Source: Verrucomicrobiia bacterium
GTDB taxonomy: Bacteria; Verrucomicrobiota; Verrucomicrobiia; Limisphaerales; UBA11358
DNA: 64,000 nt
Assembly (NCBI GenBank): GCA_036510395.1
Contig: DATCDZ010000152.1
Coordinates: 4,325 to 68,324, forward strand
Direction of reading: 5' to 3'
Shown here: piece after piece, positions 7,917 through 63,349 of the stretch
Layout: each line of letters opens with the position of its first letter
Position numbering within the stretch: position 1 is the stretch's first letter
Made by a program: the position numbers and the translations under genes
The notes under the pieces: model-generated
Told to the model about the DNA's origin: nothing
What the model saw: the letters and a program-made list of their open reading frames with translations, nothing else
Databases searched by the model: none

Positions 7917-8230
7917 GCAATTTTTCATGGCGTCCGGCGCGCAACCGAGAACCTACGATTTTTCGTAGGGGTGGGGCGTCCACCTTTTAAGCTGACGAAT
8001 AGGAAGCTAAACAATTGATTAAATACCGGGCGATTAGCGTTGAATCGGAATGTTGCAAATGAATTACCACCATGATGAATTTCAGTCGGATGCAACTGAA
8101 ACGGATGATTTAGGAATCACGTTTGGGAAAGATTGAACCGGCATACGTTTCAAAACCGATGATAATTTCTTAACGGGAATTGGTGATGAAAATTCAACCC
8201 GTATATCAGCATTGATTACCGTCAGCACTG

Positions 8231-8301
8231 AATGGCCGTTTCAGAAACCGGAGCGAAACGAAACGGATGAGCAGAGGAGCGCGGTTTTTGAAACGGCCAT
8301 T
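8231..8301. repeat. 20-bp inverted repeat (19/20 match) with a 31-nt spacer
   Basis: AATGGCCGTTTCAGAAACCG (8231-8250) pairs with CGGTTTTTGAAACGGCCATT (8282-8301). Confidence 0.8.
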
Positions 8302-8332
8302 GAGTGCGTCACCGGATAGGTTTGAATCACGC

Positions 8333-8408
8333 GGCGTTTAGTCTGTCCGGTTTCCGAGAGCCGCAGGAAAGCCGAACAGTCTAAACGCCGTTGCCGCATA
8401 TTGTGGAT
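8333..8408 (+). other. Candidate oriT core: imperfect hairpin followed by a nic-like GCATATTGTGGAT
   Basis: GGCGTTTAGTCTGT (8333-8346) pairs with ACAGTCTAAACGCC (8376-8389) at 13/14 positions. GCATATTGTGGAT lies 6 nt downstream (8396-8408). As I recall, the R388/TrwC nic region is GGTGCGTATTGTCT/AT just 3' of a hairpin. The resemblance is weak. Confidence 0.3.
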
Positions 8409-21040: not shown

Positions 21041-22387
21041 ATGAAAGAAATTTTTCCAACACCGCCGCCGCTCGTGCAAAACCAGTTCGAGTCCGTGCGC
21101 GAATTGTTTTCCAAAAACGTCGTGCCCAGCTACGGCCGTTTTGATTTGGCGTTGAGCCACGGCAACGGCAGTTACGTCTTTGATGTCGCGGGCAAACGTT
21201 ATCTCGACCTCGGCGGCGGCATCGCCGTGAATTGTCTCGGCCACGCGCATCCGGCGATTTTGGAAGCGCTGAACGACCAAGCCAAAAAACTCATTCACGT
21301 TTCCAATTTGTATTACACCCAGCCGCAGGGAAAACTCGCGGCGGAAATCGTAAAACGCATCGGCGCGGGCAAAGTTTTTTTCTGCAACAGCGGCGCGGAG
21401 GCGAACGAAGGGCTTTTCAAAGCCGCGCGCAAATTCGGCCACGACGAGGGACGGTTTGAAATCCTGACCGCGACAAATTCTTTTCACGGACGGACGCTCG
21501 GCGGCATCGCCGCGACCGGCCAGGACAAGGTCAAAAAAGGTTTTGAGCCGATGACGCCGGGTTTCCGACATATTCCGTTCAACGATCTGGCAGCGGCGCG
21601 CAACGCGATTTCGCCCGCGACGGTTGCGATCATGATCGAAGGCGTGCAGGGCGAGGGCGGCGTCACGCCCGCGGCGCCGGAGTATTTGCTCGGCCTGCGC
21701 GCATTGTGCGACGAGAAAAAACTGCTGCTGTTCATGGACGCTGTGCAAGACGGACATTATCGCACTGGAAAATTTCAGAGCTTCCAGCGGATTTTGGAAA
21801 ATGTAGGACAGGCGTCGCGCCTGTCTCAAACTTCAAATAAAGAAAACGGAGACAGGCGCGACGCCTGTCCTACGGAATTTCTGCCAGACGGCCTTTCGAT
21901 GGCCAAGTCGCTCGGCGGCGGATTTCCGATGGGCGCGTTCTGGATGCGTGAACCGTTTCAAGATTTGCTCGGCGCGGGAACGCATGGCACGACTTACGGC
22001 GGCACGCCGCTCGCCTGCGCTGTTGCGCTGAAAATTCTTTCGGTCATCGAATCGGAAAAACTCGATGAACAGGCGCGCCAGCTCGGCGAGTGGATTTTGA
22101 GCGAATTGAAGCGGTTCGCGGAAATTTATCCGACCGTCGTCAAAAACGCGCGCGGCGTGGGCTTAATGCTCGGACTTGAACTGCAAGAAAAAGAAAAAAT
22201 TCCCAAATTTACCGCCAGCGAAAAATCGGCGGCCATCCAATTTACGAACCGTTTGCACGCGCTCGGCGTCATGGTGATTCCCGCAGGCAATCAAACGATC
22301 CGTTTGCTGCCGCCGCTGAATTTGAAGCCGCAGGAAGCGGGCGAAGGCATTTCCAAAATCGAGGAAGTCGTCAAATCGCTCGCGTGA
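21041..22387 (+). CDS. argD: Acetylornithine aminotransferase (class-III PLP enzyme) carrying an in-frame palindromic insert
   Basis: YGRFDLALSHGNGSYVFDVAGKRYLDLGGGIAVNCLGHAHP...FFCNSGAEANE...FHGRTLGG...DAVQ...AKSLGGGFPMGA. Start chosen at MKEIF. Confidence 0.88.
   Translation: MKEIFPTPPPLVQNQFESVRELFSKNVVPSYGRFDLALSHGNGSYVFDVAGKRYLDLGGGIAVNCLGHAHPAILEALNDQAKKLIHVSNLYYTQPQGKLAAEIVKRIGAGKVFFCNSGAEANEGLFKAARKFGHDEGRFEILTATNSFHGRTLGGIAATGQDKVKKGFEPMTPGFRHIPFNDLAAARNAISPATVAIMIEGVQGEGGVTPAAPEYLLGLRALCDEKKLLLFMDAVQDGHYRTGKFQSFQRILENVGQASRLSQTSNKENGDRRDACPTEFLPDGLSMAKSLGGGFPMGAFWMREPFQDLLGAGTHGTTYGGTPLACAVALKILSVIESEKLDEQARQLGEWILSELKRFAEIYPTVVKNARGVGLMLGLELQEKEKIPKFTASEKSAAIQFTNRLHALGVMVIPAGNQTIRLLPPLNLKPQEAGEGISKIEEVVKSLA
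21803..21873. repeat. Nested palindromic element (GTAGGA...TCCTAC family) inside argD
   Basis: Perfect 25-nt arms GTAGGACAGGCGTCGCGCCTGTCTC / GAGACAGGCGCGACGCCTGTCCTAC around a 21-nt loop. Each arm is itself a hairpin, GACAGGCG-TCG-CGCCTGTC. Confidence 0.9.
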
Positions 22388-27988: not shown

Positions 27989-28939
27989 TCAACCTTTCAC
28001 CCGCAACAATTTCAACGCCGCCAGAAAATCCTCCGGCAGCGGCGCTTCAAACGTCATCAATTTTTTCCGGCGCGGATGAAAGAACGACAGTTCGCGCGCG
28101 TGCAGCATCACGCGCGGCGCGGCGTAATTCGTCAGTTCCTTCAGCCGCGCATTTTGCCGCGCGCCGTAGGTGTCGTCGCCCACGAGCGGATGGCCGATGA
28201 ACTGGAAATGCACGCGGACTTGATGCGTGCGCCCGGTGTGTATCTGCGCCTCCATCAACGTCGCCGCGTAAAGCCGTTCGAGAATCCTGTAGCTCGTGTG
28301 CGCGGCGCGGCCGGTGCTGTCGCCGCTCACGGCCATGCGTTTGCGGTGCGTGGGATGCCGCGCGATGGCGGCGTGAATTTCGGCGGTGGCGCGGCCCGGT
28401 TCGCCGCAGACGAGCGCGTGGTAAATCTTTTTTACTTCGCGCGCCGCGAATTGTTCCGAGAGCGCGAGGTGCGTCTCGTCGTTCTTGGCGACGACGAGGC
28501 AGCCGCTGGTTTCCTTGTCGAGCCGGTGGACGATGCCGGGCCGCGCCACGCCGCCGATGCCGCTCAACGAGCCTTTGCAATGATGCAGCAGCGCGTTGAC
28601 GAGCGTGTGTTCCTCGTGCCCGGCGGCGGGATGCACGACGAGTCCGGCGGGTTTGTTGACGACGAGCAGCGTTTTGTCCTCGAACAGAATGTCGAGCGGA
28701 ATTTTTTCCGGCTGCGCCTGGGCGGGCTTGGCTTCCGGCCAATGGACTTCAATTTTTTCGCTCGCGTGCGGATGATGCGTAGGCTTGACGATTTCGCCGT
28801 TGACGCGGATGTGGCCTTCTTCAATCAGCCGGTGCAGCGCGCCGCGCGAGGCGGTGGGAAATTTCTCGCAAAGGAATTTGTCGAGCCGCTCTTTCGGAAG
28901 CGATTTTTCGACGGTAAAATTTTCAGTTCGATTTTTCAT
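27989..28939 (-). CDS. rluD: 23S rRNA pseudouridine synthase RluD-type (S4 domain + RluA core)
   Basis: RLDKFL...NKPAGLVVHP...HRLDKETSGCLVVAK...GRTHQVRVH. Confidence 0.85.
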   Translation of the reverse strand: MKNRTENFTVEKSLPKERLDKFLCEKFPTASRGALHRLIEEGHIRVNGEIVKPTHHPHASEKIEVHWPEAKPAQAQPEKIPLDILFEDKTLLVVNKPAGLVVHPAAGHEEHTLVNALLHHCKGSLSGIGGVARPGIVHRLDKETSGCLVVAKNDETHLALSEQFAAREVKKIYHALVCGEPGRATAEIHAAIARHPTHRKRMAVSGDSTGRAAHTSYRILERLYAATLMEAQIHTGRTHQVRVHFQFIGHPLVGDDTYGARQNARLKELTNYAAPRVMLHARELSFFHPRRKKLMTFEAPLPEDFLAALKLLRVKG

Positions 28940-29023
28940 CCGCAGATTACACAGATTTTCGCAGATTAAATTTATGACTTGTTTTTAATCTGCGTTCATC
29001 GACGAAATCTGCGGAAAAAGTTT

Positions 29024-29541: not shown

Positions 29542-29629
29542 AGTCCAAAGTCCGAAGTCCGAAGTCCAAAGTCAAGCCAGCCGCGCCGTTGAATTTAGGC
29601 TTTGGACTTTGGGCCTTGGACTTTAGACT
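29542..29629. repeat. Long hairpin built of heptanucleotide arrays (AGTCCRA x5 facing its complement)
   Basis: AGTCCAA AGTCCGA AGTCCGA AGTCCAA AGTCAAG ... loop ... GGCTTTGGACTTTGGGCCTTGGACTTTAGACT, between the divergent lspA and NYN genes. Confidence 0.8.
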
Positions 29630-50050: not shown

Positions 50051-50052
50051 AA

Positions 50053-50154
50053 TTTTTGATTTACAATTTATGATTTATGATTTGGCAAAAGTCGCCCGCG
50101 CTTGGAAAAAATCATCAATCGTAAATCATCAATCGTAAATCATCAATCGTAAAT
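50053..50154. repeat. Long hairpin of heptamer arrays (TTTNNRA x5 facing 3 perfect 14-nt units AATCATCAATCGTA)
   Basis: Left arm TTTTTGA TTTACAA TTTATGA TTTATGA TTTGGCA. The right arm is 50110-50151, three exact 14-mers that read TTTACGA/TTGATGA on the other strand. Confidence 0.85.
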
Positions 50155-50164
50155 TGTTTGTCGT

Positions 50165-50729: not shown

Positions 50730-51263
50730 ATGAAAAATAAACTTGTCGAACTGCCGATCTCCACGCCAGACGGAATTTTCCTCGCGCACTATTCCGAAAA
50801 AGGTCTGGTCGAAATTGATTGGCCAAACACGAATCGTAGGAGACGAAGTAACGAGTCTCGAATTTCTTCAGCTTCCAGCGAATTAGTTAGAGACTCCTCA
50901 CGTCGTCTCCTACAAATTAAAAAGTGGCATCGCGCGACTGAAACGGCGTTGAAAAAAATTCTTGCCGGGAAAAAATCGAAGCTGCCCCCGCTCGACTGGA
51001 AGGGCAAAACGGATTTTCAAAAATCCGTCTGGCGGCAGATGCTGAAAATTCCCGCCGGCAGGACGAAAAGCTACGGCGAAATCGCAACGGCAATTGGCAA
51101 TCCCAAGGCCGTCCGCGCGGTGGGTGGCGCGTGCGGGGCGAATCCGGTTCCGGTTTTGGTTCCGTGCCATCGCGTTCTGGCCGCGAACAAAAAACTCGGC
51201 GGCTTCGGCGGCGGATTGGATTGGAAACGCAGTTTGCTCAAGCGCGAAGGAATAAAAATGTAA
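50730..51263 (+). CDS. ogt: Methylated-DNA-protein-cysteine methyltransferase carrying an in-frame palindromic insert
   Basis: TDFQKSVWRQMLKIPAGRTKSYGEIA...VLVPCHRVL...GGFGGGLDWK. Start chosen at MKNKLVEL. Confidence 0.85.
   Translation: MKNKLVELPISTPDGIFLAHYSEKGLVEIDWPNTNRRRRSNESRISSASSELVRDSSRRLLQIKKWHRATETALKKILAGKKSKLPPLDWKGKTDFQKSVWRQMLKIPAGRTKSYGEIATAIGNPKAVRAVGGACGANPVPVLVPCHRVLAANKKLGGFGGGLDWKRSLLKREGIKM
50836..50913. repeat. Palindromic element (GTAGGA...TCCTAC family) inside ogt, 78 nt
   Basis: GTAGGAGACGAAGTAACGAGTCTC - 30-nt loop - GAGACTCCTCACGTCGTCTCCTAC, with arms 21/24 complementary. It shares the GTAGGA / GTCTC / GAGAC / TCCTAC landmarks with the argD element. Confidence 0.85.
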
Positions 51264-52623: not shown

Positions 52624-52762
52624 ACTAAAAATTTGTTCCTTTAACGCCGCCCTGCGAGGTGGCAAAGGAAAATATGAACGCGAAATTGCCAAAGACGAAC
52701 TGTCTCGTGAGAGTAGTTTGTCTTTATTTTTTCCACCCGCCCGTGCCGGCGACGACGAAAAC

Positions 52763-52880
52763 CTCCAAGCTCCAACCTCCAAGCTCCAGAGAATCATCAA
52801 ATTCCAATCACCAACAATTGAAGGTTGATGCTTGGAGCTTCTCTGGATGTTGGGTGTTGGATGTTGGAGCTTCTTATTTT
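52763..52880 (+). promoter_or_regulatory. Structured pyrR leader: heptamer arrays with alternative pairings, a UCCAGAGA motif and a U-tract (candidate PyrR attenuator)
   Basis: CTCCAAG CTCCAAC CTCCAAG CTCCAGA GAAUC... faces ...CTTGGAGCTTCTCTGG and GGATGTT GGGTGTT GGATGTT GGAGCTT CTTATTTTT, 5 nt before ATG 52885. Confidence 0.35.
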
Positions 52881-62508: not shown

Positions 62509-63240
62509 ATGCAGCCGAACTCCAACCCTCAACCAAATAAAATTATGGCCGTCCCCACCCAACTGACCACCAGCGTGCAAAATGAAACCTTCGGCGGCGT
62601 CACCTATCACATCGAAGGTGAACTGGTGCCGGCGTTGCACCTGGAATTAAGCAACACCGGCGTTTATTTCGAGCATCACATTTTGCTCTGGAAAGACCCG
62701 GCGGTGCAGGTCGCGCTGCACCCGATGAAGGGCGCGTTCAAGCGGATGCTCGCCGGAATGCCGTTCCTGCTGACCGGCGCGAACGGTCCGGGGCGCATCG
62801 CGTTCAGCCGCGACGGCGCGGGCCACGTTTTCGGGCTGCATTTGAAGCCCGGCGACAGCGTGGACGTGCGCGAACATCAATGGCTCGCGGCGACCAACAA
62901 CGTGGAATACAACTTCACGCGCGTGCGCGGCGCGGCGAACATGCTGCTCGGCGGCACGGGATTTTTCATTGACACATTTTCGTGCCCGGCGCGCGAAGGC
63001 ATTTTGTGGCTGCACGGCTTTGGAAATGTTTTTGAAGTGACGCTCGCGCCGGGCGAGGCGATTGACGTCGAGCCGGGCGGCTGGATTTACAAGGAGCGCA
63101 CCGTGCAGATGCAGACGATGTTCCAGAAACTTTCGACCGGCCTGTTCGCCAGCGGGGGACAAATCGTCTGGAACCGGTTCACCGGGCCGGGAAAGATCGC
63201 GCTGCAAACGATGTATTGCCACATGGAAGGCGGCGAGTAG
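62509..63240 (+). CDS. AIM24/TIGR00266-family protein
   Basis: YHIEGELVPALHLEL...GEAIDVEPGGWIYKERTVQMQT... has the typical length and beta-rich pattern. Confidence 0.6.
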   Translation: MQPNSNPQPNKIMAVPTQLTTSVQNETFGGVTYHIEGELVPALHLELSNTGVYFEHHILLWKDPAVQVALHPMKGAFKRMLAGMPFLLTGANGPGRIAFSRDGAGHVFGLHLKPGDSVDVREHQWLAATNNVEYNFTRVRGAANMLLGGTGFFIDTFSCPAREGILWLHGFGNVFEVTLAPGEAIDVEPGGWIYKERTVQMQTMFQKLSTGLFASGGQIVWNRFTGPGKIALQTMYCHMEGGE

Positions 63241-63287: not shown

Positions 63288-63349
63288 GTAAGAGACGGCG
63301 TAAGTAGTCTCATTCTAAAATTTGTGAGCCTCGTCACCTCGACTCCTGC
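63288..63349. repeat. Decayed intergenic copy of the GTAGGA...TCCTAC element family
   Basis: The left arm GTAAGAGACGGCGTAAGTAGTCTC matches the ogt left arm at 19/24. The right arm GAGCCTCGTCACCTCGACTCCTGC matches the ogt right arm at 19/24. The two arms are only ~14/24 complementary to each other. Confidence 0.6.

Follow-up and report, generated by a model that had tools for sequence, protein, structure and literature searches.

Repetitive extragenic palindromes (REPs) with a GTAG tag were defined by Di Nocera et al. 2013 (PMC3733652), together with their dimers, their stem subfamilies and the REP-flanked genes of the REP-associated tyrosine transposases (RAYTs). Such REPs, the REP doublets forming hairpins (REPINs) and the RAYTs are known in E. 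coli, Pseudomonas, Stenotrophomonas and Opitutus terrae (PMC3733652, PMC3116915, PMC3337134). Intragenic GTAG REPs have also been described, mostly as dimers that encode 20-30 residues; their highest count was found in the verrucomicrobium O. terrae, and many of them lie in replication or repair genes (PMC3733652). The classical in-frame analogue is the Rickettsia palindromic element (RPE; PMC10969869), a group in which RPE-4 and RPE-6 carry the tag CGTC and not GTAG (PMC3733652). Here we analyse a palindrome lying in frame within ogt, the gene of a methylated-DNA-protein-cysteine methyltransferase, in a stretch of 64,000 nt from a Verrucomicrobiia bacterium (contig DATCDZ010000152.1), the whole of which is called the window. 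We think, with a probability of about 0.85, that this palindrome is a RAYT-associated REPIN which Ogt tolerates in a permissive loop; its family extends across Verrucomicrobiota of the Limisphaerales/Pedosphaera type.

The palindrome within ogt

The locus comprises the following features, given in window positions.

50730..51263, plus strand: ogt, the host gene (methylated-DNA-protein-cysteine methyltransferase), 177 aa, intact, with ATG at 50730 and stop at 51261-51263
50836..50913, plus strand: putative REPIN (inverted doublet of GTAG-tagged REPs) in ogt, 78 nt, in frame, Ogt residues 36-61
50836..50859, plus strand: left REP arm GTAGGAGACGAAGTAACGAGTCTC, with GTAG tag, 5-bp stem GAGAC/GTCTC, GA/AG and GTAA loop
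50860..50889, plus strand: spacer GAATTTCTTCAGCTTCCAGCGAATTAGTTA, 30 nt, partly self-complementary, variable among orthologues
50890..50913, minus strand: right REP arm, GAGACTCCTCACGTCGTCTCCTAC on the plus strand and GTAGGAGACGACGTGAGGAGTCTC on the minus strand

Pairing between the two 24-nt arms fails at arm positions 12, 15 and 17, which leaves 21 of 24 complementary, and a repeat search of the window extended the inverted repeat to arms of 34 nt at 79% complementarity. The element occupies codons 36-61 and extends by one base into codon 62; its translation is RRRRSNESRISSASSELVRDSSRRLL. A preliminary description of this DNA, made from its letters, had reported a 78-nt palindrome with 21/24 matching arms, a 30-nt loop and 26 in-frame codons; the coordinates and the frame were reproduced and every detail of that observation was confirmed, its position within the protein being refined as described below. 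The left arm departs from the family at position 12, with A in place of G, and this breaks the inner 12-17 pair. The right arm is the commonest arm of the whole ogt-type REP family.

Such a palindrome is not expected by chance. When the window was scanned for GTAG...CTAC palindromes 40-160 nt long whose arms match at 17 or more of 24 positions, two were found, the one in ogt and another in argD (21803-21873); 50 shuffles gave a mean of 0.02. The 78-mer also folds strongly, both as RNA (-36.2 kcal/mol, z = -6.5) and as DNA (-19.2 kcal/mol, z = -5.3). At gathering thresholds no Rfam family matched the ogt element, and a single tRNA was all that the window yielded. A generic scan of the window for GTAG followed by a perfect hairpin gave 10 matches against 6.7 expected and, besides the argD arms, nothing above chance.

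The identity of the host gene is clear from PF01035, which matches residues 95-175 (E = 1.4e-34), from the PCHRV motif and from the open frame of 177 codons. The protein is 100% identical to one from a Verrucomicrobiae metagenome-assembled genome (MAG), its relatives number thousands, and its closest solved structure is that of M. tuberculosis Ogt. An alignment of 48 close Ogt proteins is conserved throughout except for the stretch between (D/N)(W/F)P and WHR. The preliminary description had placed the insert between the N-terminal domain and a later helix. It does precede a helix (WHRATETALKKIL); the site is not the boundary of the two domains, since the insert follows the third beta-strand (VEIDWP) inside the N-terminal domain. 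The frame is still open, and Ogt is presumably active with this Arg/Ser-rich loop of 26 residues.

The REP family and its putative transposase

The pattern AGGAGACGASGTRASGAGTCTC, describing the arms, was searched in one genome per species of GTDB. It was present in at least 119 stretches and, among the matches listed, nearly all come from MAGs of Verrucomicrobiota that bear the label Limisphaerales, Pedosphaera or 'subdivision 3'. Two-armed copies with at most three mismatches numbered 121 in all the loci fetched by then. The family was also seen in records titled 'uncultured Klebsiella' or 'Bifidobacterium' (L089, L091, L105, L145, L146 and L165, where L numbers stand for fetched loci), bins that have probably been mislabelled.

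The ogt-type arm consists of a 5' GTAG tag and a hairpin, in which a 5-bp GAGNC/GN'CTC stem is followed by a tandem GA/AG and by a single pair, either G-C or C-G, before a loop of GTGA or GTAA. Compensatory changes support this hairpin. Among 238 arms, positions 8/21 are AT in 186, CG in 21 and TA in 15, and positions 12/17, at which our search pattern permitted all four G/C combinations, are CG in 151 and GC in 80, with seven non-pairs. When the 78 distinct arms were considered, 91.7% of the paired cells were filled by pairs, compared with 79.3% in shuffles, and the covariation score was 0.276 against 0.089, a value reached by none of 500 shuffles (slid controls gave at most 0.032). The two arms within one element are mostly of different subtypes, which leaves two mismatches in the long hairpin and both small hairpins intact. 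Judged by its sequence, the ogt element thus has the architecture of a GTAG-tagged REP dimer, or REPIN.

Copies of the family are frequent inside genes. Leaving ogt aside, 36 of 90 sampled two-armed copies (about 40%) lie within reading frames that stay open over 60 codons or more to either side, the remaining 54 being intergenic or nearly so. Pfam recognised clear domains in eight of nine host open reading frames (ORFs), and the ninth matched no family. The hosts include DnaE, DnaK, MetH, the valyl-tRNA synthetase ValRS (valS), a xanthine-dehydrogenase-type enzyme, a Ser/Thr kinase, an MmeI-type restriction-modification enzyme and a CHAT-domain protein. Among the fetched loci, one copy lies within a Ser/Thr kinase gene at L005:19897-19981. 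Of the three possible frames, the copies occur only in the two in which the TAG of GTAG is not read as a stop, and the same peptides recur where the arms are translated: RRRRGDESQ... and VGDEVTSL... at the near arm, and ...ETPHVVSY, ...RLLTSSPT and ...DSSRRLL at the far arm. The extragenic location from which the REP class takes its name is not shared by the ogt copy. A second ogt-type copy was found in the window, and it is intergenic.

63288..63349, plus strand: decayed ogt-type REPIN, GTAAGAGACGGCGTAAGTAGTCTC-14 nt-GAGCCTCGTCACCTCGACTCCTGC, 48 nt downstream of an ORF ending at 63240

A comparison of target sites had been suggested in the preliminary description, and we carried it out on 91 copies. 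There were no flanking duplications to compare: 81 of the 91 copies had no direct repeat of at least 2 nt beside them, and the ogt copy, flanked by AATC and AAAT, has no target duplication either. The search for a target motif around the copies revealed only a pyrimidine-rich 5' flank. The lack of target duplication and this flank would fit the single-strand mechanism of an HUH/Y1 enzyme.

A candidate for such an enzyme was found beside the REPs. The first lead to it was an E. coli YafM sequence, and what is claimed here about the RAYT rests on matches in Pfam, NCBIfam and the PDB. ORFs at L187:1600-2166, L190 and L103 form one family with 1561 database relatives, many of which are named 'REP element-mobilizing transposase RayT' by JGI. 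The L187 protein matches the NCBIfam model REP_Tyr_transpos over the whole profile (E = 3e-9) and Pfam Y1_Tnp weakly. A profile of 21 members of the family had 4ER8, the E. coli TnpA-REP, as its only match in the PDB (E = 7e-4). The HUH motif reads PDHxHLxW and the tyrosine stands in CFYxLxNP; both align with 4ER8 and are invariant.

The genes of this RAYT family are bracketed by the ogt-type REP. Ten fetched places, near-duplicate contigs among them, represent seven RAYT loci (L103, L187, L190, L206/208/209, L210/211, L212/213 and L214/215). In all seven a REP adjoins the start codon, lying 14-20 nt upstream at five of them, 12 nt at L103 and 50 nt at L187. At four (L190, L206/208/209, L103 and L214/215) an inverted REP is found at the stop codon or at most 18 nt from it, and most of the loci have additional REPs at the stop codon or beyond it. 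Arrays of up to 21 REP arms occur near RAYT genes. The RAYT of L214/215 (HEY5234197.1) stands 155 accession numbers away from the window Ogt (HEY5234042.1), and the MAGs of the two are labelled alike; from the closeness of the accessions, this RAYT very probably belongs to the window's own MAG. The REPINs of L214/215 and the intergenic copy at 63288-63349 have the spacer start ATTCTAAAA in common.

Some further observations were made at these loci. Immediately upstream of the RAYT, 17 to 21 REP arms form tandem REPINs at L210:2150-2981 and L212:1761-2677. At L206:1522-1593 an ogt-type REPIN lies inside an MmeI-type gene directly upstream of the RAYT, and an independent copy is found in another MmeI-type gene at L155. 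The RAYT homologue at L190:6574-7024 has an internal deletion that removes the HUH motif, with REPs still bracketing the gene, and looks like a decaying gene. At L204:6800-7960 there is a second, more canonical RAYT (81 bits with REP_Tyr_transpos, above the cut-off, and 32 bits with Y1_Tnp), flanked by a different GTAG REP, GTAGCGCAGACTGGCAGTCTGC; several RAYT/REP systems thus coexist in these lineages.

We hypothesize that the divergent RAYT bracketed by these REPs would be their cognate enzyme and that, by analogy with IS200/IS605 and with E. coli TnpA-REP, it would act on single-stranded DNA, cutting and joining it at the hairpins that GTAG tags. Such a single-strand mechanism would move a doublet without duplicating the target site. 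One doublet would have inserted into the non-catalytic N-terminal domain of Ogt, in the surface loop that joins strand 3 to the following helix. There it would persist because its length is 3 x 26 nt, because its xGT-AGG frame avoids TAG and because the loop tolerates extra residues. The arms would then be kept near-invariant either because the REP hairpins remain under selection or because sequence is exchanged with the REP pool of the genome.

Several observations weigh against this explanation. The lengths of the intragenic palindromes are not enriched for multiples of three. The energy of a single-arm hairpin is unremarkable (-2.8 kcal/mol, z about -0.5) and indistinguishable from shuffles; it is for this reason that the evidence for the small hairpin is the covariation, which itself stems from few independent double changes. 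The L187 RAYT scores below the curated cut-offs, with 36.9 bits against 80 for REP_Tyr_transpos and 17.2 against 23 for Y1. The RAYT is placed in the window's genome by proximity of accessions and not by a shared contig, and it is linked to the REPs by association, from which we infer mobilisation. As for the protein, an AlphaFold2 model of Ogt computed from a 48-sequence alignment had a mean predicted local distance difference test score (pLDDT) of 48.7, too poor for placing the insert; the insert is presumed to be translated and Ogt to have retained its activity.

Loop states and history of the ogt copy

We fetched 86 orthologous ogt loci, 6 by exact look-ups and 80 from a metagenome scan, of which 81 could be parsed. 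The six look-up loci share the same two upstream genes. The loop of the parsed loci was found in the following states.

Window's element: 25 of 81 loci, 5 of which keep a short-loop remnant upstream
49-nt doublet GTAGGGCCGAGC...CCCTAC: 12 of 81 loci, GTAGG-GCCGAGC-TGCC-GCTCGGC-C-AGGCGGCGC-GGCA-GCGCCGCC-CTAC
50-nt doublet GTAGGGACGCCGC...CCCTAC: 8 of 81 loci, GTAGG-GACGCCGC-GCT-GCGGCGTC-C-GGACATCGC-AGC-GCGATGTCC-CTAC
Short loop: 14 of 81 loci, VGRASSRAAKKEIVPAK
Other: 22 of 81 loci, unclassified or differing sequences

The same loop of Ogt therefore holds at least three unrelated GTAG...CTAC palindromes across lineages, all in frame. The insertion is not private to the window's genome; many orthologues carry it, with in-frame deletions in the spacer, and the spacers of the window type range from 15 to 45 nt, all multiples of 3. 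The flanks of the element vary by lineage, and in-frame deletions could account for the differences. One ogt copy (L077:802-894) has a 45-nt spacer with a simple repeat (CGGATTGGCAATTGCGGATTGCGGATT), translated as FGLAIADCGF, which resembles a hairpin of low complexity set inside the REPIN. The preliminary description had argued for a mobile palindromic family whose intragenic survivors preserve the frame, and this finds support in the dispersed stretches, in the REPs that flank RAYT genes and in the existence of ogt with and without the element.

These loci also bear on the idea that the segment is a native, conserved linker of Ogt with incidental palindromy, or an artefact of assembly. The segment is indeed present in many Ogt relatives at 70-90% identity. 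However, the relatives that share it keep the palindrome and other orthologues have no such segment, identical arms occur at no fewer than 119 unrelated loci and also flank transposase genes, and shuffles predict 0.02 such palindromes per window. The outcome that the preliminary description had named as refuting its reading, a conserved linker in relatives whose DNA has no palindromic symmetry, was not seen. That the arms elsewhere derive from a fragment of ogt, and not the other way round, is unlikely in view of the arrays beside RAYT genes. The presence of the element in dozens of independent assemblies speaks against an artefact. We thus regard both versions of this idea as extremely improbable.

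The short loop of the element-free Ogt proteins deserves a comment of its own. In L002:10091-10170 and its relatives it runs GGTGGGGCGAGCGTCCTCGCGAGCC...GTTCCCGCC, with ends resembling a degenerate doublet tagged GTGG/CCGCC. This 'VGRASSRAAK...VPAK' loop may be a decayed GTGG-tagged REP doublet, as suggested by its GTGGGG start, its CCCGCC end and a length near that of the 50-nt doublet at the same place. On the other hand, it matches residue for residue the loops of distant Ogt proteins without REP features.

Conservation was measured pairwise across 17 ogt alleles with the 78-nt form, giving the following identities.

REP arms: 92-94%; third codon positions 89-93%
Spacer: 66%; third codon positions 63%
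Adjacent helix: 66%; third codon positions 49%
Catalytic domain: 81%; third codon positions 66%

The arms are near-invariant even at third positions while the spacer and the codons drift, which indicates that they are constrained as DNA and not as codons. What conserves them may be selection in place or homogenisation from the REP pool, and two histories of the ogt copy, both compatible with a RAYT-associated REPIN, correspond to these causes.

According to the first, a single ancient insertion was inherited vertically, and its arms have been held by purifying selection on the DNA or RNA hairpins, as substrate or binding site of the RAYT or in a structural or regulatory role. We would put this at a little under even odds, as a sub-hypothesis about history and maintenance within the main explanation. 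The identity of the arms, set against that of the spacer and of the catalytic third positions in the same pairs of loci, agrees with it, as do the multiples of 3 in every spacer length variant and the fact that the junction types can be interconverted by in-frame deletions. Moreover, the spacers of the ogt copies resemble one another more (0.63) than those of 78-nt copies elsewhere (0.51), which favours common descent. However, outside the loop, element alleles are often nearer to alleles with another loop state: P0004, an allele with the element, is 95.8% identical to such alleles and 93.1% to the nearest element allele. Such mixed neighbours point to turnover, replacement or recombination, so that a single insertion needs repeated loss or one of the latter two processes. 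A neighbour-joining tree of loop-masked Ogt proteins, built on the question of single or repeated insertion, was poorly resolved, the protein being short.

According to the second, the Ogt loop is a recurrent landing site, where doublets insert and are replaced or gene-converted from the genomic REP pool, the arms being young or homogenised. This too is a serious candidate, though we would not bet on it outright. It accounts for the three or more unrelated GTAG...CTAC doublets within the same stretch of about 60 nt, for the four loop states shown by alleles at least 95% identical outside the loop, and for the several left and right junctions of the ogt element; besides, REPs are known to cluster (PMC3733652) and arrays are present here. 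Against it, the ogt spacers form a somewhat coherent group, no near-identical pair of genomes differing only by the insertion was seen among the loci compared, and, the protein having essentially one permissive loop, selection alone could concentrate the survivors without any target preference.

The hairpin might instead have been co-opted, the mRNA structure (-36 kcal/mol) or the Arg-rich peptide serving the expression or function of Ogt. The strong RNA fold (z = -6.5), the conserved synonymous sites of the arms, the basic RRRR...RR peptide encoded in a DNA-repair protein and the over-representation of intragenic REPs among genes for replication and repair (PMC3733652) would be in line with this. 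Nevertheless, the same element is found in the unrelated DnaK, MetH, ValRS and kinase genes and in intergenic DNA, and many close orthologues have no element or an unrelated doublet at the site, with a wholly different peptide at the same position. We consider co-option improbable and retain the tolerated REPIN as our explanation.

It is tempting to go further and propose that REPINs persist in essential coding sequences as living RAYT substrates. The ogt copy would then be old and vertically inherited, its hairpins selected as DNA, with synonymous sites frozen across family-level divergence, while the protein tolerates the peptide, and the Ogt loop would be a landing pad where successive REP families swap at their GTAG/CTAC boundaries. 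We offer this tentatively, as something rather unlikely to hold as a whole. If true, coding regions would be a regular habitat of REPINs, and the locus would be a natural system in which selection on mobile DNA could be measured against selection on the host protein, nucleotide by nucleotide at the same sites.

Other palindromes of the window and relation to known systems

The other tagged palindrome of the window belongs to a second family.

21803..21873, plus strand: second-family REPIN in argD, arm GTAG-GACAGGCG-TCG-CGCCTGTC, arms 25/25 complementary

It forms an insertion of about 27 residues with respect to solved acetylornithine aminotransferases, and argD-type REPs recur as doublets in six other loci. 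The preliminary description had noted that the argD and ogt elements share the outer GTAGGA/TCCTAC and the inner GTCTC/GAGAC, and these landmarks are real. It had further taken the two elements as one family, which does not hold: the argD arm is GTAG followed by GACAGGCG-TCG-CGCCTGTC, and the ogt arm GTAG followed by GAGAC-GAGGTGACGA-GTCTC. By sequence they are separate families of GTAG REPs with a common architecture and superfamily. One of the six further argD-type doublets lies in another class-III aminotransferase, at L120:2012-2096, directly after the GFGRTG motif and at a site different from that of the window's argD.

Other long imperfect palindromes of the window have no GTAG tags (50052-50157, 52757-52872, 29542-29629, 28939-29015, 8225-8307 and 8332-8390). 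They consist of short simple repeats, such as AGTCCAAAGTCCGAAGTCC / GGACTTTGG... and ATTTATGATTT / AAATCATCAAT, and at least 50052-50157 is intergenic. They may be terminator-like hairpins or another class of repeats.

Among the described systems, the GTAG REPs and REPINs are closest to the ogt element. They share with it the 5' GTAG tag beside a short stem-loop, the inverted doublets with a variable spacer, the stem subfamilies related by compensatory changes, the dimers of two arm types, the RAYT bracketed by its own REPs, the lack of target duplication and the intragenic dimers of 20-30 residues. The ogt type differs in its REP sequence and in a distinct RAYT clade that falls below curated cut-offs, in the unusual inner part of the hairpin, where a tandem GA/AG and a single base pair precede the GTGA/GTAA loop, and in that about 40% of its sampled copies are intragenic, while REPs are by name extragenic. 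The in-frame insertion of GTAG REPs has already been published, Verrucomicrobia included (PMC3733652), and the basic picture drawn there is unchanged by our case, which is a further family with a further RAYT clade. What may be new is the presence of several REP families in one ogt loop, the frozen synonymous sites of the arms and the intragenic share.

As a consequence for annotation, translated REP arms account for unusual Arg/Ser-rich insertions of low complexity in Verrucomicrobiota and for many spurious 'hypothetical proteins' there (RLLTSSPT, ETPHVVSY, VGDEVTSL). In addition, an extensive REP family, from an uncultured lineage of soil and peat, becomes tied to a specific divergent RAYT clade, and the ogt loop provides a compact case for the persistence and turnover of a REPIN population.

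Two other groups of elements invite comparison. Miniature inverted-repeat transposable elements derived from insertion sequences (Correia, ERIC, MITEAba12) are likewise small, non-autonomous, palindromic and sometimes intragenic. The ogt-type family differs from them in having no target duplication, in ending in GTAG-tagged hairpins and not in the inverted repeats of DDE transposons, and in being associated with an enzyme of the HUH/Y1 type. The RPEs resemble the ogt element in being short palindromes that lie in frame in many unrelated housekeeping genes and add a peptide where the fold tolerates it. RPE-1, however, measures about 100-150 bp and has a conserved peptide, while the ogt element has 78 nt; no dedicated transposase is known for RPEs, and they belong to another phylum, grounds on which we set them apart without a comparison of sequences. 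The ogt element works like an RPE and is probably not a member of the RPE family. The intragenic scale of its family is comparable to that of the Rickettsia elements, here with an identifiable transposase.

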